Source of the DNA: an uncultured Candidatus Saccharibacteria bacterium
GTDB taxonomy: Bacteria > Patescibacteriota > Minisyncoccia > Phycocordibacterales > UBA9973
Direction of reading: 5' to 3'
DNA length: 64,000 nucleotides
NCBI GenBank assembly: GCA_964553015.1
Contig: CAZKJE010000001.1
Coordinates: forward strand, 6,110-70,109
Of the stretch, positions 29,419 to 61,255 are shown piece after piece (position 1 is the stretch's first letter; the number at the start of each line of letters is the position of its first letter). The notes beneath the pieces were generated by a model. It was given only the letters and a program-made list of their open reading frames with translations, had not been told where the DNA came from and did no database searches. Made by a program: the position numbers and the translations under genes.

Positions 29419-30666
29419 ATGCAAAACCCCTTCCAAAATGCTATGAAGCAATTAGAGAAAGCTGGCCAAATTAAAAATTTTGGGGAAGAATTTATTGAAA
29501 AGCTTCGTTATCCCGATCGGGATATCAGAATTTCAATTCCGGTAAAAATGGATGACGGAAGCTTAAAAATATTTGAAGGCTATAGAGTAGAGTACAACAA
29601 TGCCCTCGGGCCCTACAAGGGCGGAATCAGATATCATCCGGATACAGAAATAAACGAAGTAAAAGCCCTCGCCTTCTGGATGGCTATAAAATGCGCTGTC
29701 GCAAACATACCTATGGGCGGAGGAAAAGGCGGAGTTACTGTTGATCCGAAAAAACTTTCAAAGAGCGAACTGGAAAATTTGTCCCGCGGGTGGGTCCGAA
29801 AACTTTCTGATATTTTAGGGCCGTATAAAGATGTGCCTGCGCCGGACGTCAACACGACTCCCGAGATAATGTCTTGGATGAATGATGAATTCATGAAAAT
29901 AACAGGCGAAGAAACTGGTGCCACATTTACAGGCAAACCTCTAGACGAGCGCTTGCCGGCCGGCAGGCAGGGTTCAGAAGGCAGAAGCACGGCTACGGGT
30001 TTGGGAGGATTTTATGTTTTTGATGCACTCCGAACACAAATTGGCTTGCCAGAAAAATGCAAAGTCGTAATTCAGGGATTTGGCAACGTCGGAGCACATG
30101 CTGCTCATATTTTCGCGGAGAACGGACACGCAGTTATAGCGGTTTCGGATTCCAAAAGCGCAATTTTTAATGAAAATGGATTAGATTTGGATAAAGTTGA
30201 AGCACACAAGAAAAGCACGGGCGCGCTAAAAGATTTTTCCAAGATAGACCCGCAGGCAAAAAATGTTAGCAATGCTGAATTACTGGAACTCACCTGCGAC
30301 TTGTTAGTGCCTGCGGCTTTTGAGAATGTGATTACAGAAGTAAACGCCAAAAATGTAAAAGCAAAAGCAATAATGGAGCTGGCAAATGGGCCGATAACTC
30401 CAGAGGCGGATGAAATTTTATTTAAAAAAGGCATTCCTGTAATACCGGATGTGCTCGCAAATTCCGGCGGGGTTACCGTATCATATTTTGAATGGGATCA
30501 GAATTTAAAAAATGAACACTGGAGCGAAGAGCAAGTTTTTGACAAATTAAAACTAATACTTGAAGACGCCGCACACAAAGTTTCAGAAAAAGCGAAAGAA
30601 AATAAAACATATCTGCGCATGGGCGCGTTTATTCTAGCGCTTGAAAGAATTAAGGAAAAAAGCTAA
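29419..30666 (+). CDS. gdhA: Glutamate dehydrogenase (Glu/Leu/Phe/Val dehydrogenase family)
   Basis: Catalytic motif ALGPYKGGIRYHPD and Rossmann GFGNVGAHAA. 415 aa. Confidence 0.85.
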   Translation: MQNPFQNAMKQLEKAGQIKNFGEEFIEKLRYPDRDIRISIPVKMDDGSLKIFEGYRVEYNNALGPYKGGIRYHPDTEINEVKALAFWMAIKCAVANIPMGGGKGGVTVDPKKLSKSELENLSRGWVRKLSDILGPYKDVPAPDVNTTPEIMSWMNDEFMKITGEETGATFTGKPLDERLPAGRQGSEGRSTATGLGGFYVFDALRTQIGLPEKCKVVIQGFGNVGAHAAHIFAENGHAVIAVSDSKSAIFNENGLDLDKVEAHKKSTGALKDFSKIDPQAKNVSNAELLELTCDLLVPAAFENVITEVNAKNVKAKAIMELANGPITPEADEILFKKGIPVIPDVLANSGGVTVSYFEWDQNLKNEHWSEEQVFDKLKLILEDAAHKVSEKAKENKTYLRMGAFILALERIKEKS

Positions 30667-49394: not shown

Positions 49395-50423
49395 TTATCT
49401 TACTGGTTTTGGGAACGGCGGGTATAGATCTTTATCTATAGTGCGAAGAAAACAAGTTCGTCCGGCTTCATGGCTCCACGATTCATTTGTGCCGCCGCCC
49501 GGATACGGGTAAGACACAGCCGCGTCTTTCTCGTAATACGGCATCATAGGAGGTATCCCTCCTCCGTAACTGTACTCCCTCCAGCCTTTCGGTATGGGTT
49601 GAGAAAAGGTAGCGCAAAGTTCAAACTGAAGAGAACCTTTCACTGCATACTCGTATGTTTTTCCTTTTTCAAATTCAGGTTCTACGGGCAAGGACCATCC
49701 GGAAATCGGGTCCGCCAGCTCGCTTAATGTTGCCGGTAATTTTTCTTTCTGCTGCCAGAAGTTAATTACCTGATATTGGATAGTCTGCAAATCATTTACT
49801 CTCCTGTCGTCTAAACGGAGAGATCTCTGCTTCATAGGACTGCCGAGAATAGCAAAACTGTAACTGACGGCCGTTATCACAATGACAATTCCCACGCCTC
49901 CCAAAATCATGCCGAGTTTTGATTGTGTTTCTTCTTTGGCTTTAAGATTACGTACATAGTAAAAACCTACAAGTCCGGCCACTATTAATACAGTTATAAC
50001 TTTATAAATAAATCTTGAAGTTATTTCTCCGGAAATAAAATACCTGACAAGCGTAACGAGATCGCCAGCGATAACAAGAGAAGAAAGAAAAAGAATAATA
50101 TATATCACCCATTTTTTAAACATCTCGTCGATCTGCCCCAAATACATCTTTGAAAATTTATTCCAAAAATAAGATATTGTGAGGAATATCGGAAAAACTA
50201 TTATGAGGGTTGCGAGCGCCGTGCGGATACCTTCATATTCGTACGTAGAATATCCGTATTGATAACTGGAATTTAAAACATCGGGAAAACGCTTGTTCAA
50301 TGTTTCAAAAACAAGATTTAGAAAAGATACGACCGAAGTTATTAAGGTTATTAATACCCCCAGACACAAGAAAAAGAACCCGACATTAAACTTTGAACTT
50401 ATAACGTTTGTTTGTGTTTCCAT
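49395..50423 (-). CDS. Hypothetical membrane protein with a C-terminal extracytoplasmic domain
   Basis: Five to six TM helices then a roughly 130-aa soluble domain. No motif recognised. Confidence 0.35.
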   Translation of the reverse strand: METQTNVISSKFNVGFFFLCLGVLITLITSVVSFLNLVFETLNKRFPDVLNSSYQYGYSTYEYEGIRTALATLIIVFPIFLTISYFWNKFSKMYLGQIDEMFKKWVIYIILFLSSLVIAGDLVTLVRYFISGEITSRFIYKVITVLIVAGLVGFYYVRNLKAKEETQSKLGMILGGVGIVIVITAVSYSFAILGSPMKQRSLRLDDRRVNDLQTIQYQVINFWQQKEKLPATLSELADPISGWSLPVEPEFEKGKTYEYAVKGSLQFELCATFSQPIPKGWREYSYGGGIPPMMPYYEKDAAVSYPYPGGGTNESWSHEAGRTCFLRTIDKDLYPPFPKPVR

Positions 50424-50468
50424 GTCTATTATTATATCATATGTAAATTAGGCAACAATAGAGAATAT

Positions 50469-50849
50469 ATGCGGAAAAAATTCGAGAATTTTTCAAAAAA
50501 ATTGACTCGCTGGATTGGTTCGCCCCAGTCTATATTGGTGCACACTCTTTTTTTTGCGGGAATGTTAGGCCTGCGGTTATTTGGCATATCCTCTTCGGAT
50601 GTTCTGCTAATTTTAACAACTGTTGTATCCCTTGAAGCGATATATTTATCAATTTTTATACAAATGACGGTAAATCAGCATGCGCAGGAGCTGGAAGAAG
50701 TTTCTGAAGACATTGGAGAAATTCAGGAAGACGTGGAAGAAATTCAGGAGAACGTCGACGAGATTCAGGAAGACGTTGAGGATATTCAGGAAGAAATTCA
50801 GGATGAAGAAAATGGGCCGGTGCTGCCGGAACAAAATAAATCTATTTAA
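50469..50849 (+). CDS. Small 2-TM membrane protein (DUF1003-like) with an acidic heptad-repeat tail
   Basis: The ORF begins at 50412 and overlaps the upstream gene. The likely start is the Met at 50469. C-terminal EIQEDVEEIQENVDEIQEDVEDIQEEIQDEE. Confidence 0.4.
   Translation: MRKKFENFSKKLTRWIGSPQSILVHTLFFAGMLGLRLFGISSSDVLLILTTVVSLEAIYLSIFIQMTVNQHAQELEEVSEDIGEIQEDVEEIQENVDEIQEDVEDIQEEIQDEENGPVLPEQNKSI
50716..50805 (+). repeat. Tandem 21-nt coding repeat (4+ units) encoding the EIQEDVE heptad
   Basis: gaaattcaggaagacgtggaa / gaaattcaggagaacgtcgac / gagattcaggaagacgttgag / gatattcaggaagaaattcag. Confidence 0.7.
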
Positions 50850-52639: not shown

Positions 52640-53026
52640 CTATTCCTCGAAATTCACTTCAAAACTATACATCCCCATTCCGCACAGGCCATTAAGCGGC
52701 TCACCTGCCTTAGGAGTTCCTATATCTATTTCTGTTTCTCCGGTTTTAGGCAAAATTTTCTGGAACCCAAGAGACCGGATCACCAAGGCGGAAGAACAGT
52801 CAAAGGTGTTGTTTGTATCTACGATAAGCTTCGTAGGAATTCCGGCTTTGGCGGTAGATACCGACGGCGAATATCCGCCTTTGGCATTTATTCTGACATA
52901 CTGAATACCATTTTTTATTTCCACATTCTGAAGGGAGGCAGGCCGACTAGAGCCGTTTCCCCAAAAAATAAAACCAAAAACAAACAGTAGGGCTATGCTT
53001 AATATTATGAGAGCTGTTTTGTTCAT
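52640..53026 (-). CDS. Cupredoxin-like copper-binding protein (secreted/membrane-anchored)
   Basis: N-terminal TM/signal, a beta-rich domain ending GEPLNGLCGMGMYSFEVNF (Cys plus Met-rich, as in Cupredoxin_1-type proteins). Confidence 0.45.
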   Translation of the reverse strand: MNKTALIILSIALLFVFGFIFWGNGSSRPASLQNVEIKNGIQYVRINAKGGYSPSVSTAKAGIPTKLIVDTNNTFDCSSALVIRSLGFQKILPKTGETEIDIGTPKAGEPLNGLCGMGMYSFEVNFEE

Positions 53027-53045
53027 AAAATAATTATATCACAAT

Positions 53046-54065
53046 TTATATACTGAATAATGGAGGGATAAAGCCCAGTCCTGCAAGTCCTGCGAGTAAT
53101 GAAAACAATCCGAGCCCTATGACTACTACGCCCGCGGATTTAAAGAACAGGGGTGCATGCTTCCCGTGCGCAAAAGATGCCGACCCAAAAGATAGGAGCG
53201 CAAGCATCGGCAGTGTTCCTAAAGCAAATGCAAACATAATTACCGCTCCGGCGCCAAAAGACCCGCTCGAAAGCGCCACGACCTGCATTGACTGTGTAAA
53301 TCCGCAAGGCAGAAAAAAAGTTCCGAAACCGATAATGAGAGGCGTAAAAGTTTTGTGCTCTATTTTTCTGAAAAAATTAAACACTCCTGTTGGCAGAGTA
53401 ATTTTACTTTTTGCAAATATGCCGACTAAGTTTAAGCCAAGAGCTAGCATGACAAGCGAAGCGATAATTCCCAAAATAGCCGTGAAAGTAAAATTTATTC
53501 CTATTGCCTTGCCGAGCGCTCCCAAAACTCCGCCTAAAATTGCAAAACTAAACAATCTGCCGGCGTGGAAAAGCAGGAAAGTTTTTGTATCGCTTACGTT
53601 GTCTTCCGATATTTTCGCCGACAGAGATAGCACCAAGCCTCCGACGACAGCCAGACAACTGGAAACCGAAGCAACCAGCCCAATAATAAAACTGGTAACG
53701 TAAGTAGTTTGACCGCCAATGCCAAAATTCAGGATTCCAGATTTTTGCAGCAGAAAAAATAAAACCAAGAACACGAGCCCGATAGGTATGGCTTTCCAGA
53801 TGATATCATCGTCCTGTTTTTCTTTAATTATTTTTTCTACAGAAAGAGTATAGCCATTTGGTTGTATTTTTTCAGTTAATATCTCCGCAAGTTCTTCCGG
53901 AGTTTTTTCACTTTCGGTTTCAATCAGGATTTTTTCCTTATTCAGATCTACCTGAACTTTTTTTACCGATTCTTGTTCACCCAAAATATCTTCAATCAAT
54001 ATTTTACACGAGGCACAGTGCGTGCCGGAAACGTGAAATGTATGGGTTTTTTGGCCTGTTTTCAT
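53046..54065 (-). CDS. Heavy-metal-associated (HMA) domain fused to a DsbD/CcdA-like polytopic membrane domain
   Basis: N-terminal HVSGTHCASC ferredoxin-like metal-binding domain. Membrane domain with conserved Cys (SSC, LPCGF). Confidence 0.55.
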   Translation of the reverse strand: MKTGQKTHTFHVSGTHCASCKILIEDILGEQESVKKVQVDLNKEKILIETESEKTPEELAEILTEKIQPNGYTLSVEKIIKEKQDDDIIWKAIPIGLVFLVLFFLLQKSGILNFGIGGQTTYVTSFIIGLVASVSSCLAVVGGLVLSLSAKISEDNVSDTKTFLLFHAGRLFSFAILGGVLGALGKAIGINFTFTAILGIIASLVMLALGLNLVGIFAKSKITLPTGVFNFFRKIEHKTFTPLIIGFGTFFLPCGFTQSMQVVALSSGSFGAGAVIMFAFALGTLPMLALLSFGSASFAHGKHAPLFFKSAGVVVIGLGLFSLLAGLAGLGFIPPLFSI

Positions 54066-54097
54066 TTGCCTATACTAGCACAAAAAATAAATTAATG

Positions 54098-54835
54098 TCA
54101 GGCTAAGAAAAATTTTTTAATTTCATCTACTGTTTCATTTAGATGTTTAAGCGGTGCATAGTGGCCACCCCGCAAAGTCTTTGTCATTACATTTTTTTGA
54201 GCAATATGATTATTAGAAAGCAGATCATTGTCTGCTATGATATTTAAGACCGGCACGGAAATTGAAGAGAGTAGTGGCAGCCCGCTGGTATCAAGAACAA
54301 TATTTTTAAAAGTATCACTCAAACTTTTAAACGTATGTAAATGATAATCCGAAAAAACAAGATCCGGTATATATGACGGTTTCAAAAACTTGAAGAAACG
54401 CATCAGATTATGCTGGCAAAGAATATTGCAGGCTGTCCGAGAAAAATTCGGTGCGTGTAAAAGGTAGTATCCCCAACCGATTTTGCTCTTCAAAATAATT
54501 TTTTCAGCTTCATTTTCTTCTTTGAACAATGGAGCATTCAAGAGCACAATTTTGCTTACTTTGCTTGGATTTTCCTTCGCCCAAGCCAGCGCCAAAATGC
54601 CACCCATAGAATGCCCAACTAGAAAAATTTCTCCCTTAGGAAACTTCTTTAAAATTTGAGAATTAATATAGGCAAGATGTTCTGAGAGTGTAAAATTCAT
54701 ACCTAGATCTTTGTTTTCTCCAAACCCAAGAAGATCAAAAGAAAGCGTCCGAGCGCCGAATTCCTTAAAAGACTTTTCCATTTCTTGAAAAAAATTTTTT
54801 GAGGCCGCAAGCCCATGTAAGAAAACTATTTGCAT
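54098..54835 (-). CDS. Alpha/beta hydrolase
   Basis: Nucleophile elbow GHSMGG with an HGL oxyanion region near the N-terminus. 245 aa. Confidence 0.65.
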   Translation of the reverse strand: MQIVFLHGLAASKNFFQEMEKSFKEFGARTLSFDLLGFGENKDLGMNFTLSEHLAYINSQILKKFPKGEIFLVGHSMGGILALAWAKENPSKVSKIVLLNAPLFKEENEAEKIILKSKIGWGYYLLHAPNFSRTACNILCQHNLMRFFKFLKPSYIPDLVFSDYHLHTFKSLSDTFKNIVLDTSGLPLLSSISVPVLNIIADNDLLSNNHIAQKNVMTKTLRGGHYAPLKHLNETVDEIKKFFLA

Positions 54836-54909
54836 TGAGTTATTCTTTAATTAAAGATTCCACAAGAATGTCCTGTCTGACCATTATTTAATTAATGCTA
54901 ATAATTTAC

Positions 54910-55440
54910 TTAGACTGGAGCCTTTTCGGGCGCTCTGTCGTTATTTGTTTCTATGAATTCTTTGATTTTACTTTCATCAACTGTATCAAGTTTTAGAAGG
55001 TAGCCCCAAGACGTCAGAGCGACGGGAACATCCAGATCTTTGCGGGCTAACATTATTTTCTTGCCATCAGCGCCGATGAATGCTTTTTTGATTTTATCCA
55101 CCTCACCTTGCTCCAGGTCTTCTCTATACCAAACCACTGCCGCACCATGCTCCATACTATGAAGCACGAGTTCGTCAGGGACTGTCTCATCTTTTATTCC
55201 CGGCCCTGCTACGCCTGCCCAATGCGGTCCGGAAGTCGGAGGGTTTGATTTATATGCCGGATGCGTTTCATTGCGACCAACATGCCCTCTACCCTCATCA
55301 GCCATTTTTTCTCCCATCATAACTTTGCTAAGTTTTTCTTGATTTTTAGCTCCTTCTTTACTTGAAAACCATACTCCCCCAGCCATAATAATTAATGTTA
55401 ATAATGTAATTCCTCCTACTACTTTATGTTCTGTTGTCAT
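54910..55440 (-). CDS. DUF3105-domain membrane-anchored protein
   Basis: N-terminal TM, PPTSGPHW and HSMEHGAAVVWY motifs typical of DUF3105. Confidence 0.5.
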   Translation of the reverse strand: MTTEHKVVGGITLLTLIIMAGGVWFSSKEGAKNQEKLSKVMMGEKMADEGRGHVGRNETHPAYKSNPPTSGPHWAGVAGPGIKDETVPDELVLHSMEHGAAVVWYREDLEQGEVDKIKKAFIGADGKKIMLARKDLDVPVALTSWGYLLKLDTVDESKIKEFIETNNDRAPEKAPV

Positions 55441-55459
55441 AATATTTTAATTTAAATTT

Positions 55460-56122
55460 TTACGCATTGCAACCAGTTTTTTCTATTTTTGGAAACCAAT
55501 AACCATTTACCTCTTCTGCAATTTTATACATTTCTTCTTCGCCGGCCTCCTCCGAGGCCATGAGTTCCAAGAGTCCTAGCATGGCCATGCCGTGATTGCA
55601 GTCGGGAAAATAAGCAGGGTTCTTGCAGCAAGGTCGGAAAATATTTTTTGAGACTTTTTCAACCAATACTTGCTGTTCTGGAGTCAGGGTTACAAATTCA
55701 TGCATGCTGTAATGATCCATCGCGCCACCTTTAGCCAAGGTCCAGCCGCCAGTGGAGGCGAAATTGCCTGCTCCGCCATATTTGGGATCCATCATCGGAC
55801 CGTTTTCAAGAATTGGGTTTTTATTTGAGAGTCCGAACGCCCAGAGCATATTTAGCATCATTCCGGAATTTTCAGACGTAATCTTTACTTTGCCGTTTGC
55901 GCCATCATACAACAATTTCTTATCCGCTTCCGAAAGTCCGCCTCTTTGGCTGTATAGATTTTCAAACTTTTTTGTATCTATCACGCCCGCTTCTGCCATT
56001 TTTACTCCCAAGCTGCCCCATTCCAGAGCGGAGAACACTGCCTGCTCTACTGGCGTCAGGCCTAAAAGCAATATTCCGGCAATGACGAGTGAGGCATATA
56101 AAATTTCTTTTAATTTTTTCAT
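55460..56122 (-). CDS. Hypothetical extracytoplasmic Cys-rich protein (PCC-x8-C-x-HG motif)
   Basis: N-terminal TM/signal. C-terminal FRPCCKNPAYFPDCNHGMA plus a terminal GCNA. No family recognised. Confidence 0.35.
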   Translation of the reverse strand: MKKLKEILYASLVIAGILLLGLTPVEQAVFSALEWGSLGVKMAEAGVIDTKKFENLYSQRGGLSEADKKLLYDGANGKVKITSENSGMMLNMLWAFGLSNKNPILENGPMMDPKYGGAGNFASTGGWTLAKGGAMDHYSMHEFVTLTPEQQVLVEKVSKNIFRPCCKNPAYFPDCNHGMAMLGLLELMASEEAGEEEMYKIAEEVNGYWFPKIEKTGCNA

Positions 56123-56123
56123 A

Positions 56124-56432
56124 TTAGCAGCAATCTTTTAACTTATTTTCTAATGATTCGACTTTTTTGCTTTCTCCTCCCTTTTTTTCTCTTAATTTTG
56201 AGAATATTTTTTTAAGTTCCGTTACAATACCCCCTATCGATGCGCCCATCAAAATCGCAGTCAGAAACTCATAGCGAGATACAGATAGAAGCCCGAGCCA
56301 CATGCCCAAAAGCATCCATAGCCACGTAAGTGTTACACCGGCGCAGATAGCACAGATTTGTATAGGCAATTTTTTATTAATTACCCGCACGATTAAAGTC
56401 AAGAAGAGAATTGATGATATTACTATAATCAT
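56124..56432 (-). CDS. Small CxxC membrane protein (possible thiol-disulfide oxidoreductase partner)
   Basis: 102 aa, three TM helices, CAIC in TM2, C-terminal DCC. Confidence 0.3.
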   Translation of the reverse strand: MIIVISSILFLTLIVRVINKKLPIQICAICAGVTLTWLWMLLGMWLGLLSVSRYEFLTAILMGASIGGIVTELKKIFSKLREKKGGESKKVESLENKLKDCC

Positions 56433-57208
56433 ATGAAGAAGATTAGGATACCGATAATAATCATACCAATGCCGGTCCAGAGCTTGACGCTCCCAATGTT
56501 GTCACGCTTCCACAGCTGAACTTTATCAACTAGCAGCTTGTCAGCGGATATGAACAAAACAGCAGCCAAAGGAATAATCAGGATCAAGTTATATAGGAGA
56601 AGATAGCCAAATCCGCTCATGTAAGTCACCTGATCGCGCAATAACCCGATAACCATTAAATATGGTCCACCCATGCATGGAAACTGGCAGATGCCGACGA
56701 GAATTCCGAGTCCGAATACCGCAGGGAATGATGCTCGGTCCATTAATTTACTCATAGCGCTGTGGGCAATTCCGGGAATTTTTAATTTTATCGGGAACTG
56801 CGGAAAAAAACGATTTACCAAGTTGACTACTCCGAAAATAATCAGAAGTGTCGCTCCCAGTTTCCCCATGAAGTGCGGAGTGTTGAACAAATGCAGAACT
56901 TTCAGTATCCCCAAACCTATCAGGAAGTATGCGGTGAAAATTCCTGCAATATAAGTTCCCCCCAGCTGAAGAATTTTCTCACGGCTCATCTGAATCCCGA
57001 ATAAAAATGCGATAGTAATAAGCAGAATAGAAAACGAACAGGGGTGCACGCTATCCAAAAGCGCCGACACTAAAAGAAGCGGCAAAAGCCATGTGCCTTC
57101 CCGGCTCATTTCCCAGATGATAGATGAGGTCGCCGGACTATTTTTTAGTACAACTATGCCTATCAGGGCAACTAATACGATACTGATTGTTATAATGAAT
57201 TTTTTCAT
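56429..57208 (-). CDS. ccdA: Cytochrome c-type biogenesis/thiol-disulfide transporter CcdA (DsbD transmembrane core)
   Basis: Six-TM protein with the DSVHPCSFSIL and GICQFPCMGGP Cys-containing motifs of CcdA/DsbD. Confidence 0.65.
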   Translation of the reverse strand: MKKFIITISIVLVALIGIVVLKNSPATSSIIWEMSREGTWLLPLLLVSALLDSVHPCSFSILLITIAFLFGIQMSREKILQLGGTYIAGIFTAYFLIGLGILKVLHLFNTPHFMGKLGATLLIIFGVVNLVNRFFPQFPIKLKIPGIAHSAMSKLMDRASFPAVFGLGILVGICQFPCMGGPYLMVIGLLRDQVTYMSGFGYLLLYNLILIIPLAAVLFISADKLLVDKVQLWKRDNIGSVKLWTGIGMIIIGILIFFI

Positions 57209-57213
57209 CTGTG

Positions 57214-57768
57214 TTAAGGGGTTACGTTCGCTTTAATTTCAAGTTCAAGTTTTTGTCCGTTTTCATCTACGAGGTAAATAAACCGGTCAATCGTGCCTAC
57301 CCCGGCTGGGCCATGCGCGTTCGGATCGTACACGACTTCAATGTCGCGAGATTCTCCGGCAGGAATTATTTCCCCCGCTTTGCCGTCGCCATGTCCAGGC
57401 ATATCAGTCGCACCGCCGTGACCAGGCATGCCAAACGGCCCAAGCTTGCTGCCGTCATCTTTTAATAAATAAGCCGCTGTACACATGCAGGAAGTACTGA
57501 TATTGGTCAACGCGACGTCTTCAGCGCCAGAGTTGGTGACTTTGAATATTTTGCTGACATTTCCATCTTTCATGGAGATTTGTCCGAAGTCATATAGCGT
57601 TTCTTCTGCTGAAAGTTTTCCCGCTATCTTATTTTCTACTTTAGCGGGATGCGAATTAGTAACAGATGCCTCGAGTGCTTTATCGCTGTCTACCGACTTG
57701 CTCCACCACACCAGACCCGCCACTCCTATAACAATTATAATTAACGAAACTGCAGTTTTTTTGTCCAT
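57214..57768 (-). CDS. DUF1573-domain protein (membrane-anchored Ig-like)
   Basis: N-terminal TM, YDFGQISMKDGNVSKIFKVTNSGAEDVALTNISTSCMCT typical of DUF1573, then a His/Gly/Met-rich loop. Confidence 0.5.
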   Translation of the reverse strand: MDKKTAVSLIIIVIGVAGLVWWSKSVDSDKALEASVTNSHPAKVENKIAGKLSAEETLYDFGQISMKDGNVSKIFKVTNSGAEDVALTNISTSCMCTAAYLLKDDGSKLGPFGMPGHGGATDMPGHGDGKAGEIIPAGESRDIEVVYDPNAHGPAGVGTIDRFIYLVDENGQKLELEIKANVTP

Positions 57769-57792
57769 AAATTTAAATAATTAGAATAGTAA

Positions 57793-57826
57793 AAAATCCC
57801 TTGAGGGGATTTTAAAGATACAGCTA
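57793..57826 (-). terminator. Rho-independent terminator
   Basis: aaaaaatccc-ttga-ggggatttt hairpin with a flanking T-run on the minus strand. Confidence 0.5.
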
Positions 57827-57846
57827 AAAATTTTACGACAAAATCG

Positions 57847-58266
57847 TTAGCTATACCTTGCGTATAAAAAAGACGGGCTATTTTCAAAAAACGATAGCCA
57901 TTTTATTATTTCTTCTTTAGGAGAATATAATATTTTGATATCCAGATAATACTTCCAGCTTTCAAAATATTGTTTTTCATTGAAAAAGTTATGCTTGCCG
58001 ATAAAATATAAAATTATTCCTGAAACAAAAAGGTAAAGAGCAAATAAAGACATTAGTGTTACATTTGAAAATTGCTGCCAGCCGGAGATGTGGTCTAAGG
58101 TATTTTCACATACCGAAAAGCCGTTTTCTGCATAAGGACAATTCATCATCGGCGTTTCAGTGGAGCTGGTGGTATGGCTCCATCCCACCAAACCAAACAC
58201 GCCTACGCTTACAAAAGCTAGTAAAACAAGACTGCCGATGATGAAATTGTTTTTCCAGATACTCAT
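57847..58266 (-). CDS. Hypothetical membrane protein
   Basis: 139 aa with two TM helices and a Cys pair (NCPYAENGFSVC) in the loop. Confidence 0.3.
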   Translation of the reverse strand: MSIWKNNFIIGSLVLLAFVSVGVFGLVGWSHTTSSTETPMMNCPYAENGFSVCENTLDHISGWQQFSNVTLMSLFALYLFVSGIILYFIGKHNFFNEKQYFESWKYYLDIKILYSPKEEIIKWLSFFENSPSFLYARYS

Positions 58267-58325
58267 GTTACTTAATTCTATTGCATTTTAGTGTAAAACA
58301 CTACCCCCGCATTTATATTATACTA

Positions 58326-58529
58326 CTATTGGCTCTTGTTGTCAATACCAAATGCGGTATGCAGCCAGCACCAGCCAATAAAGCTTTCAACAAGGGCTAT
58401 CCAGCCGACAATCGCAATAAGAACATTCCCCCAATTCGCGTCAAACTGCGGCGCGAGTGGCGAAAGCCACCAGAAGGCCAAGGCAAAGCGTAAAACTCTA
58501 TCTACTATTCCCAAATTTCTATAATTCAT
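58326..58529 (-). CDS. DUF2892 (YgaP-like) small membrane protein
   Basis: DRVLRFALAFWWLSP...IVGWIALVESFIGWCWLHTAFG matches DUF2892. The internal Met start avoids overlap with copA. Confidence 0.5.
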   Translation of the reverse strand: MNYRNLGIVDRVLRFALAFWWLSPLAPQFDANWGNVLIAIVGWIALVESFIGWCWLHTAFGIDNKSQ

Positions 58530-58563
58530 AAAATTTAAATTGATTATTTTAATAATTTCGACC

Positions 58564-60903
58564 TTATAATTTCTTGCTTTTAATGCGCAAAGAATTTCCG
58601 ACCACCGACACCGAAGACATGGCCATGGCAAATCCTGCAAACACGGGAGACAGCAGCCATCCGAATATTGGATAGAATAATCCTGCGGCGAGTGGTATGC
58701 CTATGACGTTATATGCAAAAGCCCAGAAAAGATTCTGTTTGATTCCTCGCATGGTCATTTTTGAGAGCTTGATGGCTTTTACAAGTTTTGAAATATCGCC
58801 ATGAAGCAGAGTTATGCCTGCGCTTTCTATCGCCACGTCAGTGCCCGTAGCCATAGCTATGCCCACGTCTGCCTGCGCCAAGGCCGGAGCGTCGTTGACC
58901 CCGTCACCCGCCATGGCCACGACATAACCATTACTCTGAAGTTCTTTTATTTTATTTAATTTATCTTCCGGCATTGCTTCAGCCACTATTTCGTCTATTC
59001 CGGCAAGATTTGCAATATGTTTTGCCGTATTTTTATTATCGCCCGTGAGCATTACCACTTTCACTCCGAGTTTATGCAGATTCTTAACTGCAAGCACTGT
59101 CTCCTCTTTTATAGCGTCAGCCACCATGAAAACTCCCAGAATTTCATTTTTCGCACCAAGAATTATAGGAGTTTTGCCTTCTAGGGTTTCTTTTTCTATT
59201 TTTTCTTTCTGATTTTCTTTGAATTTTAGATGCAAATCCTCAACGATTTTTGTATTGCCGGCAAAATATTCTACACCACCCACGACTCCCTTAAGTCCTT
59301 TTCCTTTTACAATTTCAAAATTATCTACGCCGCCTATCGCTATTTTTTTTTCTTTAGCATAACTCAGCACTGCGTGAGCAATGGGATGTTCTGATTTATT
59401 TTCTAGAGTTGCGAGAATCGAAACCAACTCATGATCGCTTTTGCCTGAAAAATTATTTATAGAAACAAGCTCCGGCTTACCAAAAGTAAGTGTCCCTGTT
59501 TTATCTACCACCACCGCATTAACTTTATGAAGTTTTTCAAGAGTGCCGGCATCTTTTATGAGAATACCCTCCTTGGCTCCCTTGCCTACTCCGACAATTA
59601 TCGCAGTCGGCGTCGCCAAACCTAGGGCACACGGACAAGCTATGACAAGTATCCCCACAAATGAAACCAAGCCAAACGAGAACGCCTGTGAAAAATCCAT
59701 GTATTGTGAACCTACCACAAGCCAGAGTAAAAGAGTTAGAGCTGCTATTCCTAAAACAATCGGCACAAACACGCTGGAAATTTTATCCGCCAGAGCTTGT
59801 ATCGGCGCCTTGCTTCCCTGCGCTTCTTCCACCATCCTGATAATGTTGGCAAGCAGAGTTTCCGAACCTACTTTTGTAGCCCTAAAAGTAAATGAGCCTG
59901 TAGTATTTATCGTCCCTGATACCACGCTGTCTCCCTCTTTTTTACCCACCGGCATTGGCTCGCCGGTGACCATGGACTCGTCAATATACGAAGAGCCTGA
60001 AACGATAATACCGTCCACTGGGATTTTTCCCGCTGGTTTTACTATAATCAAATCTCCGTGCATCACCTGCTCAACAGGTATTTCTATTTCCTGATTATTG
60101 CGAATGACTAAAGCGGTCTTCGCCTGCAAACCCAAGAGCTTTTCTATTGCATCTCCGGTCTTTATTTTAGAGCGGGTCTCTAAATATTTTCCGAGCGCAA
60201 TAAAAGCAATGACTATAATGGTAACGTCATAATATGTGCTTGCTGTATCAATAAAAGGCGCGAGAGTTTCTTCAAAGGCCGTAACGGCAAAGCTGTATAA
60301 AAATGCAACCGAGGTGCCTATGCCGATAAGCGTATCCATGTTCGCCTTGCCGTAACGCAAGAATCGGTAAAAGCCTAGGAGATAGGGTTTGCCCACCACG
60401 AATAAAATATAAGTGGCGAGTATAGGCATCAAATGGTGGAAAAATTCTTCCCACACGTACGGCATTCCGGACACAAGCCCGTACTGCTCAAGAATTTCCC
60501 ATGCCATTACAAAAGCGCTTATAGCTGCAAGCGGTATGGCAGAAATAATTTTATTCCGCATGTCTTGAAGCTCTTTTAGTTTTTCTTTTTTAGATTGATT
60601 TATGCCTAAATGCGCTTTATGCTCGTCTTCGGTCATACCCATTTCGCTCGCCGTCATTCCTCTAGCGTGAGTACCGTGGTCTTCTTTTTTATTTACCATT
60701 ATAGAATATCCAAGAGGCTCAAGTTTTTCGTTGAACTGTTCCGGACTTGTTTTGCTCTCATTAAAAGAAATCTTTGCGTTTTCGGTACCAGCATTAACTG
60801 AAATCCCCTCTACACCATCTATCTTCTTTATCGTTCTTTCTATAATGCTAGAGCAGGAAGCGCAGTGCATGCCTTTTACTTTGTAAGTTTCTGTGTGGCT
60901 CAT
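58564..60903 (-). CDS. copA: Copper-translocating P1B-type ATPase
   Basis: N-terminal [17 protein letters not shown] motif, DKTGTLT phosphorylation site, [10 protein letters not shown] hinge. 779 aa. Confidence 0.9.
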
Positions 60904-60905
60904 AA

Positions 60906-61169
60906 TTATTTTCTCTTAAGCTGATAAACTTTCAAAATTTCTTTGGTTGCTTTATCCGTCTGTCCGCCCTTTATCTGATTGACAACACAATGCCCAAGAT
61001 GCCCTTCGAGAAGCATGTCTTCTATATTGGAAAGACCCTGCTTAAGAGCTGATGTCTGAGTGATGACATCAATGCAATACGTATCTGCTTCTATCATTTT
61101 TTGCAATCCCCGCGCCTGACCTTCTAAGATTTTCAGTCTCCTGATAATTTTTTGCTTATTTGTCTTCAT
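60906..61169 (-). CDS. csoR: CsoR/RcnR-family metal-sensing transcriptional repressor
   Basis: 87 aa. Helical protein with the C-H-C copper-ligand pattern (YCIDV...HLGHC). Confidence 0.8.
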
Positions 61170-61180
61170 ACCCCAAGCAT

Positions 61181-61198
61181 ATACCCCCTAGGGGGTAT
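61181..61198. promoter_or_regulatory. CsoR operator, perfect 18-bp palindrome ATACCCCCTAGGGGGTAT, within the csoR-copA promoter
   Basis: On the minus strand: TTGACA (61208..61203) directly followed by the palindrome in the spacer/-10 region, then ATG 12 nt later. Matches the GC-rich pseudo-palindromes bound by CsoR (e.g. Bacillus TACCC...GGGTA). Confidence 0.6.
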
Positions 61199-61255
61199 TG
61201 TCAATAAAGTTTTCCACAGCAAAAAAGAGCGGATTATACACTCCCAAGGATTAGT

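Follow-up and report, generated by a model that had tools for sequence, protein, structure and literature searches.

Do the consecutive genes that surround a copper pump in a minimal-genome bacterium form one working system, and if so, what would that system do? We address this question for a 64,000-nucleotide stretch of DNA (hereafter the window) from an uncultured Candidatus Saccharibacteria bacterium of the candidate phyla radiation (CPR; contig CAZKJE010000001.1, positions 6,110 to 70,109 of the forward strand), in which a first-pass annotation made from the letters of the DNA had proposed a compact copper and extracytoplasmic thiol-disulfide locus under a CsoR operator. According to the list of open reading frames (ORFs) of the window, the locus comprises 12 co-directional, consecutive minus-strand ORFs at 52640-61169, which we number g1 (csoR) to g12 (Table 1); the eleven genes counted earlier are actually twelve, and the earlier list itself names twelve. 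The listed genes are all present as minus-strand ORFs, their family assignments stand in our Pfam, NCBIfam and PDB searches of the window proteins, and some of them are indeed uncharacterised, g4, g7 and g8 being without any Pfam or NCBIfam family. On balance, we consider it reasonably probable that the locus is a three-unit copper-stress island typical of Paceibacteria-type CPR, Scs-like in function and assembled from non-homologous parts, and the copper-export operon, the membrane electron conduit and the uncharacterised cysteine proteins, a set found again in hundreds of related species, probably constitute one copper-defence system built largely of unknown parts.

The evidence that carries this answer centres on g8, a Cys-rich protein encoded in the middle of the locus. 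Its homologues number 6789 at E<=1e-3 (counted as 90%-identity clusters), all of them annotated as hypothetical and none with a Pfam family; where a source is named, it is Candidatus Nomurabacteria, Paceibacterota or Minisyncoccia, names that support the CPR affiliation of the window. When one genome was scanned for each species, g8 proved to be encoded in at least 581 species, from lineages that include Nomura-, Giovannoni-, Lipton-, Jorgensen-, Yanofsky-, Niyogi-, Colwell-, Azam-, Wildermuth-, Campbell-, Kaiser-, Vogel-, Woyke- and Peregrinibacteria. We called ORFs in 80 species-level g8 loci, nearly all labelled CPR, searched them with profiles of the window proteins, and counted neighbours within 10 kb of g8 in the 42 loci that have at least 5 kb on both sides. 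A copper P-type ATPase is near g8 in 42 of the 42, a conduit of the DsbD superfamily (DsbD/CcdA-type) in 40, and an extracytoplasmic redox partner (DUF1573, Redoxin, Trx-like or DsbA-like) in 41. The g4 protein follows with 35, a Cys-containing membrane partner (g7, a four-transmembrane (4-TM) 'SCCAHY' protein, or a 170-aa protein ending in CC) with 31, and CsoR with 25, while an HMA-DsbD_2 protein, a CupA-like protein and DUF3105 are found near g8 in 13, 11 and 9 loci, respectively. More than 97% of these neighbours share the strand of g8; by a rough estimate, a random gene would lie in such proximity to copA in a genome of ~0.8 Mb with a chance of a few percent.

Two gene orders are usual, csoR-copA-(ygaP)-g4-DUF1573-g6-g7-g8-(DUF3105)-(HMA-DsbD_2-cupA) and g4-DUF1573-g6-g7-g8-csoR-ATPase, and the housekeeping genes that flank them vary from locus to locus. 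The ATPase gene starts 3-37 nt after g8 in eight loci, with pumps of both the CPC and the CPH type. The composition is variable: in locus L001 the DUF1573 protein and g6 are replaced by a canonical DsbD_TM protein and a Redoxin, other clusters carry Trx-like and DsbA-like genes, and resistance accessories (DUF302, SHOCT, YHS, DUF305 and CopG/DUF411) occur among the related clusters. The first-pass annotation had considered that its proposal would fall if the genes showed no co-conservation in related genomes; they clearly do show it, since gene order, strand and proximity to a copper ATPase recur in many CPR lineages, as seen from the g8 synteny counts in the 42 loci, the shared strand and the varying flanks. 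Two versions of the cluster can reside in one genome: L001 and L019 lie ~560 kb apart on one 813,355-bp contig, the first version having the canonical DsbD_TM protein, a Redoxin and an HMBD-type ATPase, and the second DUF1573 and g6, HMA-DsbD_2 and a CupA homologue.

Gene fusions lead in the same direction. A search of 1.84 billion representative proteins with the g8 profile returned 538 g8-family representatives, many of them longer than 220 aa. In one of these (P0249) an HMA domain without signal peptide is connected through a single TM helix to g8; in a second (P0244) a signal peptide and a DsbC_N domain precede g8; a third (P0247) joins g7 to g8 (E 8e-48 for the g7 part); and in eight representatives the 4-TM 'SCCAHY' membrane protein is fused to g8. 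Judged by their domain content, the fusions are independent links of g8 with heavy-metal binding, disulfide isomerases and Cys-containing membrane proteins, and the coherent copper and extracytoplasmic thiol system that had been proposed is supported by the recurring gene order together with the HMA, DsbC_N and g7 fusions. Since the fusions fix the topology, the g8 domain is predicted to be extracytoplasmic, with which the positive-inside rule agrees: the N-terminus of g8, MKKLKE, fits a domain outside.

The g8 protein itself is strongly conserved, with 62-90% identity over 35 aligned homologues. Invariant are W35, FASTGGW (121-127), H137, H141, R-P-C165-C166-x-N, F-P-D-C175-N-H177-G-M-A-M-L-G, W209-F-P, and C218 in a Gly-rich C-terminal tail. 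The AlphaFold2 model has a predicted local distance difference test score (pLDDT) of 81.4 and a predicted template modelling score of 0.78, and is a confident prediction, mostly helical with a disordered tail. By these searches and comparisons, g8 is a new family without a match among solved structures, and a look-up of the window's g8 by exact match gave no record. A DsbA-like profile match (91%) was disregarded, as it covers the region of the N-terminal anchor and linker. The tail is a variable element: P0085, P0104, P0110 and P0120 carry two to three tandem C-terminal Gly-Cys tails (GGCGVDAG...QQGGCGI; columns 300-366 of alignment A1), and this repetition suggests a metal-capturing arm of variable length.

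Upstream of g8 in the usual order lie the two proteins that would supply it with electrons. The DUF1573 protein g5 is membrane-anchored and Ig-like, with an invariant CxC in the motif T-S-C94-x-C96-T and a Gly/Met/His-rich loop (GMPGHG...MPGHG), and it falls into the OS_HP2 (seleno)protein family (NF041425, 3e-6). Selenoprotein forms of DUF1573 with a UGC motif have been described (PMC9312934); in our reading, UGC occupies the position of the g5 CxC, which would mark the g5 cysteines as redox-active. The membrane protein g6 had been labelled ccdA, which is right as to the DsbD superfamily but hides how divergent the protein is: it has no Pfam match at E<=0.01, being too divergent for Pfam DsbD_TM. 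We assign it to the DsbD/CcdA superfamily as a divergent member because its family aligns with the canonical 288-aa DsbD_TM family of the related clusters (hhalign 96.3%, E 1.7e-9, 191 columns) and because P56-C57 and C174-x-x-P177 are conserved, at 90% or more in 58 sequences; one g6 homologue also gives a weak match to PF02683.

The remaining members of the module are small Cys- or His-containing proteins. The g4 protein is found in 57 of the 80 loci, mostly as the first gene of the module, and its conserved residues are only C43, C53, H59 and W123; the loop C43-x9-C53-x5-H59 is probably outside, since it lies between two TM helices and is free of Lys and Arg. In g7, C27-x-x-C30 sits in the second TM helix and C101-C102 at the C-terminus after a Lys-rich tail, for which reason both motifs are probably on the cytoplasmic side. 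The DUF3105 protein g9, which directly follows g8 in 14 of the 80 loci, has H73, H94, E97 and H98 as conserved residues; thioredoxin-like matches to its model (E ~0.03) come from a low-confidence prediction and are a weak hint only. Sequence searches of the PDB with g5 and g9 gave no match, and profile-profile comparisons of g9 with Trx or CopG, of g4 with g7 or x147, and of g7 with x147 were negative or insignificant. The YgaP-like g3, for which we take the ATG start giving 67 aa and not the 104-aa TTG ORF, occurs in 8 of the 80 related clusters. Many related clusters also have a tiny ORF (~41-50 aa) just before g4, encoding a Gly/Tyr/Met-rich peptide with a TM tail (...MMGYGYGYGGMMGGGFG...LILLGIWLYKQINK); it lies ~130 nt upstream of g4 in L006, L007, L008, L010, L011, L014, L015, L020, L031 and L037, is at 8069-8194 in L002, and is absent from the window.

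One gene of the array has to be set apart. YahD of Lactococcus is copper-induced, and by analogy the alpha/beta hydrolase g10, which the first-pass annotation had included in the system, might have been taken for a conserved member of the copper regulon. We reject this because none of the 80 related loci contains g10, in whose place the two closest relatives have a YibE_F gene; g10 is probably a local passenger outside the conserved system.

The last two genes of the array form a pair of their own. The g12 protein had been called cupredoxin-like, which holds for the fold family and can be made more exact: in a phmmer search of the PDB, its residues 33-120 match Streptococcus pneumoniae CupA (2MRY/4F2E, E 5.9e-10), and a further match is to the cupredoxin-type metal-binding domain of S. 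pneumoniae CopA (4F2F, E 9e-4). Its C77, C115, M117 and M119 align with the ligands of the CupA binuclear site (Cys...Cys-x-Met-x-Met) and are conserved at 90% or more in 21 sequences, and a single hydrophobic segment (residues 1-27) provides an N-terminal membrane anchor. By homology, g12 is thus a relative of the CupA-type, membrane-anchored, cupredoxin-fold Cu(I) chaperones. In CPR loci, the CupA homologue almost always adjoins a gene of the g11 type. In g11, an HMA domain with H16-C17-x-x-C20, predicted to be cytoplasmic since there is no signal peptide, is fused to a DsbD_2 membrane domain in which C137 and P253-C254 are conserved. A copper link is known for this protein type, because the HMA-DsbD_2 architecture (COG2836) has been inferred to be part of the Firmicutes CsoR meta-regulon (PMC4938975).

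At the other end of the array, the identity of the pump and of its regulator is clear from their sequences. The PF02583 four-helix-bundle domain (Trns_repr_metal) spans the whole of g1, which NCBIfam classifies as RicR-like (6e-20), and C32, H57 and C61, read from the translation, give the x-C-H-C pattern of Cu(I) ligands; the spacing is the same as that of Cys36, His61 and Cys65, which we take to be the ligands in Mycobacterium tuberculosis numbering. The translation of g2 contains ACPCALG (CPC), AYN (YN), MAMSS (MxxSS), DKTGT and, in the N-terminal HMA domain, MHCASC. From these motifs, g2 is a P1B-1 Cu(I)-exporting ATPase, and g1 is a Cu(I)-sensing repressor of the CsoR family, with a G/C-tract inverted-repeat operator overlapping its promoter. 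The region upstream of csoR reads TTGACA-ATACCCCCTAGGGGGTAT-ATGCT, a sigma-70-type promoter whose spacer is filled by the palindrome. ATACCCCCTAGGGGGTAT is the sole such site in the 64-kb window, with 0.02 expected by chance; the architecture TTGACA-box-TATAcT is also found upstream of csoR in ~35 related loci, and the box is kept 13 nt upstream of csoR in relatives. A check for additional CsoR boxes inside the locus had been suggested; run over the whole window, it found none besides the one in the csoR promoter, either with up to 3 mismatches or with the relaxed pattern ACCC-N6-GGGT. A palindrome with a G/C core after g4, AAATCCCCTCAAGGGATTT, was considered as a second operator and rejected in favour of an RNA hairpin/terminator, since its flanks are unlike the TAC/GTA arms and it is followed by a T-run. 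A second putative type of CsoR-family operator, in which a direct G-tract repeat, TTGACAAATAGGGGGTAGGGGTATAG, replaces the palindrome, was seen in L011, L013, L023, L056 and L070; the sites in L011 are upstream of csoR (1364) and of a second g4 (9400).

The proposal that the locus as a whole is under a CsoR operator therefore has to be divided: it stands for csoR-copA but is not supported for g4-g12, given the single box, an internal promoter, a terminator-like element after g4, and a boxless module in a relative. A putative sigma-70 promoter upstream of g4 matches the consensus at 12 of 12 positions and is kept as TTGACA...TATAAC in the closest relative, L086, whose g3-g12 module sits after a gene of the metallo-beta-lactamase fold (Lactamase_B), with neither csoR-copA upstream nor a CsoR box. 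Because of the internal promoter before g4, the hairpin-terminator after it, and the module of L086 without csoR-copA, the twelve-gene array is, as far as its sequence allows us to judge, probably not one CsoR-controlled operon. The arrangement is not the same everywhere: in many genomes the module is located upstream of csoR, L013 has a CsoR box 21 nt before g4, and L011 has a variant box before its g4 paralogue. In L086 (5714-11201; ~90% amino acid identity), YibE_F stands in the place of the hydrolase, the HMA-DsbD_2 gene is split into two ORFs, and an extra block HTH-120aa-thioredoxin-DsbD_TM/Redoxin fusion (579 aa), missing from the window, lies between the CupA homologue and ychF.

The element after g4 is a structured RNA in its own right. 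An 11-bp hairpin abuts the g4 stop codon, and a terminator-like hairpin, AAAATCCCCTCAAGGGATTTTTT, with a T-run comes next. We trained a covariance model on 21 copies and scanned 1.36 Mb with it: each of at least 30 loci, some from outside the training set, gave a single match, which invariably fell at the 3' end of g4 (among them L004, L006-L010, L012, L015-L017, L019, L020, L022, L028, L030-L032, L047, L054, L062, L075, L080, L086 and L087), and elsewhere there were only three weak matches on the reverse strand (E 0.1-0.8). Compensatory changes are found in 10 of the 11 pairs of helix 1, and the covariation score is 0.373, compared with 0.247 +/- 0.018 for shuffles (0 of 500 reached it) and at most 0.20 for slid controls. 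No Rfam family matches the element. Attenuation, processing and partial termination are its candidate roles, and through either of the latter two g4 would be expressed at a level different from that of g5-g12.

Table 1 Features of the copper locus (positions in the window; strand -, minus)
Feature	Position	Strand	Assignment and remarks
csoR promoter	61176..61204	-	-35 TTGACA, 61204-61199; -10 TATGCT, 61181-61176
CsoR operator	61181..61198	.	perfect 18-bp palindrome ATACCCCCTAGGGGGTAT; fills the -35/-10 spacer
g1 csoR, 87 aa	60906-61169	-	PF02583, E 1.6e-23
g2 copA, 779 aa	58564-60903	-	TIGR01511, 2.5e-177; HMA + E1-E2 + HAD domains
g3 YgaP-like TM mini-protein (DUF2892), 67 aa	58326-58529	-	PF11127, 1.1e-9
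Putative internal sigma-70 promoter	58317..58345	-	TTGACA-17-TATAAT; inside the 3' end of g3, upstream of g4
g4 Cys-loop two-TM protein, 139 aa	57847-58266	-	no Pfam or NCBIfam family
Two-hairpin RNA element	57788..57861	-	3' end of g4; 11-bp covarying hairpin + terminator-like hairpin AAAATCCCCTCAAGGGATTTTTT
g5 DUF1573	57214-57768	-	PF07610, 2e-12
g6 divergent DsbD/CcdA-superfamily membrane protein, 259 aa	56429-57208	-	hhalign
g7 CxxC membrane protein, 102 aa	56124-56432	-	no Pfam or NCBIfam family
g8 Cys-rich membrane-anchored protein, predicted extracytoplasmic, 220 aa	55460-56122	-	no Pfam or NCBIfam family
g9 DUF3105, 176 aa	54910-55440	-	PF11303, 1.2e-26
g10 alpha/beta hydrolase	54098-54835	-	PF00561, 2.7e-26
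g11 HMA + DsbD_2	53046-54065	-	PF13386, 6e-31; PF00403, 2e-10
g12 CupA-type, Cupredoxin_1	52640-53026	-	PF13473, 1.9e-8

How might these parts work together? We envisage three units, whose boundaries are predicted from the elements described above. In the first, CsoR would bind the palindrome in its own promoter and be released by Cu(I), so that csoR-copA is derepressed and CopA exports cytoplasmic Cu(I). The second, g4 to g8 with g9, would be an extracytoplasmic cysteine system supplied with reducing power: g6 would pass electrons outward, by analogy from cytoplasmic thioredoxin, a direction and function that we infer only from its adjacency to DUF1573, Redoxin and Trx genes; the CxC of the DUF1573 protein, which may itself bind copper, would accept them outside the membrane and keep g8 reduced; and the Cys-Cys/Cys/His/Met cluster of g8, with its flexible C-terminal Cys arm, would bind Cu(I) leaving the ATPase and/or repair copper-oxidised thiols, with g7 and g4 as accessory membrane partners. 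The third, g11-g12, might offer a second thiol-lined route that transfers or buffers Cu(I) at the membrane. One could speculate further, and we put this forward as a possibility that is more doubtful than the general reading, that g8 founds a new class of copper proteins located outside the cytoplasm and serves the P1B copper ATPases of CPR as their dedicated partner on the outer face, where it would take Cu(I) straight from the pump on its Cys-Cys/Cys/His/Met site and swinging Cys arm and be recycled by an Ig-like, non-thioredoxin DUF1573 reductase fed by a divergent CcdA, the whole being a complete hand-off and thiol-repair machine of uncharacterised families.

Several observations weigh against a copper-responsive thiol system of this kind. 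No relative of known function was detected for g8, with no hit in the PDB sequence search and a best Foldseek match in the PDB of E 3.1 at a TM-score of at most 0.2, and it is from conserved Cys, His and Met residues and gene context that we infer copper binding or redox activity for g8, g4, g7 and g9. The topologies of the proteins, likewise, are predicted from hydropathy, the positive-inside rule and the logic of the fusions. AlphaFold2 models g9 poorly (pLDDT 61, and below 50 for residues 32-97). For g6, the NCBIfam match to ArsG, an arsenical efflux permease, is slightly better than that to DsbD (2e-4 and 0.07), which makes a role in transport possible. Finally, no CsoR box of the window precedes g4-g12, the internal promoter and the terminator-like element intervene, and the module of L086 does without csoR-copA, so that copper-responsive expression of the module is only putative.

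The closest functional parallel is provided by the Scs proteins of Salmonella, Proteus and Caulobacter, which are copper-induced and comprise the DsbD-like ScsB, the Cu(I)-binding oxidoreductases ScsC and ScsD, together with the small protein ScsA, which has CX2C in a TM segment (PMC10907172); the extracytoplasmic Cys proteins of Scs combine copper binding with action on disulfides (PMC10907172, PMC8900818). Both are copper-associated gene sets with a DsbD-type conduit (ScsB, comparable to g6), extracytoplasmic Cys proteins (ScsC and ScsD, comparable to g5 and g8) and a TM mini-protein with CX2C (ScsA, comparable to g7). The parts themselves are nevertheless different. Outside the DsbD superfamily there is no homology of sequence or fold; g6 is a bare membrane core, whereas ScsB has N- and C-terminal periplasmic domains; and in contrast to ScsC and ScsD, no thioredoxin-fold protein is encoded in the window, the g8 model being all-alpha and g5 Ig-like. 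The regulator in CPR is CsoR instead of CpxRA, and the CPR cluster is physically coupled to the copper ATPase. To our knowledge, CPR bacteria have no outer membrane. The hosts also differ, the review describing Scs only in Gram-negative bacteria (PMC10907172). By analogy, then, the locus would do the job of Scs without belonging to that system.

Other known systems share single features. As in TlpA-ScoI-CoxB and CcdA-ResA, a six-TM conduit with two cysteines lies beside a membrane-anchored extracytoplasmic redox protein, and some related clusters carry canonical DsbD_TM and Redoxin; unlike there, the partner in the window is DUF1573 and not a thioredoxin, g6 has diverged beyond the reach of the DsbD_TM profile, and neither the locus nor the related clusters examined showed a cytochrome c or oxidase context. 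For TlpA-ScoI-CoxB, copper handling requires that the Cu-ligand cysteines first be reduced (work cited in PMC7558416). CupA, which is known from few streptococci, is membrane-anchored and hands Cu(I) to a CopA with a cupredoxin-type metal-binding domain (PMC7558416). The copY-cupA-copA locus of S. pneumoniae thus resembles ours in the cupredoxin fold family, the N-terminal anchor, the Cys...Cys-x-Met-x-Met ligands and the setting in a copper-efflux locus; a CopA with a cupredoxin-type domain is, however, absent from the window, whose CopA carries an HMA domain of the ferredoxin-like type, the partner of g12 is HMA-DsbD_2, and CsoR is the regulator instead of CopY. With the Firmicutes CsoR regulon (PMC4938975) the locus has in common the G/C-tract operator overlapping the promoter, the CopA-type ATPase and the HMA-DsbD_2 'heavy metal transport/detoxification' protein. 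Unlike that regulon (copZA and COG2836), the CPR cluster has no separate CopZ, and it adds g4, DUF1573, the CcdA-like protein, g7, g8, DUF3105 and the CupA homologue. CopG (DUF411, CxCC), finally, is a periplasmic protein of copper resistance and has a thioredoxin-like fold with a Cu4 cluster. It shares with g8 vicinal cysteines, His and Met and an extracytoplasmic location, the latter predicted for g8, and some of the CPR clusters with g8 include DUF411 genes as well; homology to g8 is lacking, hhalign giving a probability of 2.9%.

While a reductant pathway is our preferred interpretation of the membrane components, the main rival would do without electron transfer altogether. By the logic of MerT, MerC and MerF, g6, g7, g11 and the 'SCCAHY' protein could be Cys-lined transporters in a relay of thiophilic metal, that is, Cu(I) and possibly Ag(I) or Hg(II), with g8, g5 and g12 in charge of metal hand-over. 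A CxxC in a TM helix with a C-terminal Cys-Cys is the pattern of MerC and MerF, and g7 has it; in NCBIfam, g6 matches best a DsbD-superfamily permease for organoarsenical efflux; g11, the partner of a CupA-type chaperone, combines a cytoplasmic HMA with a membrane domain that has two cysteines; and the one to three Gly-Cys repeats in the tail of g8 resemble a metal-fishing arm. We nonetheless regard such a relay as unlikely. In related clusters g6 and DUF1573 are swapped for canonical DsbD_TM and Redoxin, or have Trx or DsbA beside them; the fusion partners of g8 include DsbC_N, a disulfide-isomerase domain; the selenocysteine forms of DUF1573 are typical of redox catalysis; and the locus already has a dedicated ATP-driven copper exporter.

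One could also imagine that copper is supplied and not removed, g8 being a copper-dependent enzyme that the ATPase, the CcdA-type pathway and the chaperones load, as TlpA, Sco and CopA2-type ATPases do for cytochrome oxidases. The 62-90% identity of g8 and its many invariant non-Cys residues (FASTGGW, H137, H141) are what one would expect of an enzyme, its link to the copper ATPase holds in 42 of 42 loci whatever the pump subtype, and the reduction of Cu-ligand cysteines before metallation is an established mechanism (TlpA-ScoI-CoxB, cited in PMC7558416). The CsoR repressor and the DUF302, SHOCT, YHS, DUF305 and CopG/DUF411 accessories point, however, to detoxification and not to supply, no substrate-related genes co-occur in the clusters, and C-terminal Cys repeats that vary in number are more suggestive of metal capture than of a fixed active site, which together leave maturation of a cuproprotein improbable. 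That the genes are mere co-directional neighbours in a compact genome, independently transcribed and unrelated beyond csoR-copA, would accord with a minus-strand run that does not stop at the locus but takes in unrelated genes on either side (upstream an aminotransferase, downstream YchF and a methyltransferase), with the internal promoter and terminator-like element, and with g10 as an unrelated insertion, but it is already contradicted by synteny and fusions and has very little left to recommend it: the order g4-g5-g6-(g7)-g8, its strand and its proximity to a copper ATPase recur in dozens of species of many CPR lineages with differing flanks, gene fusions exist, and gaps of 1-5 nt or overlaps among g5, g6, g7 and g8 (the gaps from g1 to g12 are 2, 34, 59, 78, 5, -4, 1, 19, 74, 32 and 19 nt) suggest translational coupling.

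CsoR-controlled copper efflux is in itself ordinary, and so is the coupling of copper stress to the maintenance of envelope thiols. What appears to be new is the set of components: we found no description in the literature of a CPR-wide module around g8, g4, g7, DUF1573 and DUF3105, of the pair formed by the CupA homologue and HMA-DsbD_2, or of the RNA element after g4, and searches on DUF3105, on PF13386, and on CPR with CsoR or copper gave nothing relevant. Much of bacterial diversity belongs to the CPR, whose conserved proteins mostly lack a known function. For one such family, g8, with thousands of sequences, the synteny provides a concrete context of copper pump and membrane reductant pathway. 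If the copper-defence reading is true, it would define a new copper-handling protein family without a match among solved structures, give a first functional assignment to DUF1573, DUF3105 and two unnamed Cys-containing membrane families, and imply that the link between copper stress and envelope thiols, represented by Scs in enterobacteria, arose independently in minimal-genome bacteria. The homology of g12 extends CupA-type chaperones far beyond streptococci, and the conserved structured RNA element may set an expression ratio within the cluster.

Two further features of the window lie outside the copper locus. The relaxed operator scan picked up a perfect 16-bp palindrome, TATCCCGATCGGGATA, at 29509-29524, which is unrelated to it. 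At 50412-50849, on the plus strand, a 145-aa ORF encodes a protein with a TM region and an acidic EIQEDVEEIQENVDEIQEDVEDIQEE repeat, with weak matches to DUF1003 and DUF948, and L086 has a counterpart at the same position.

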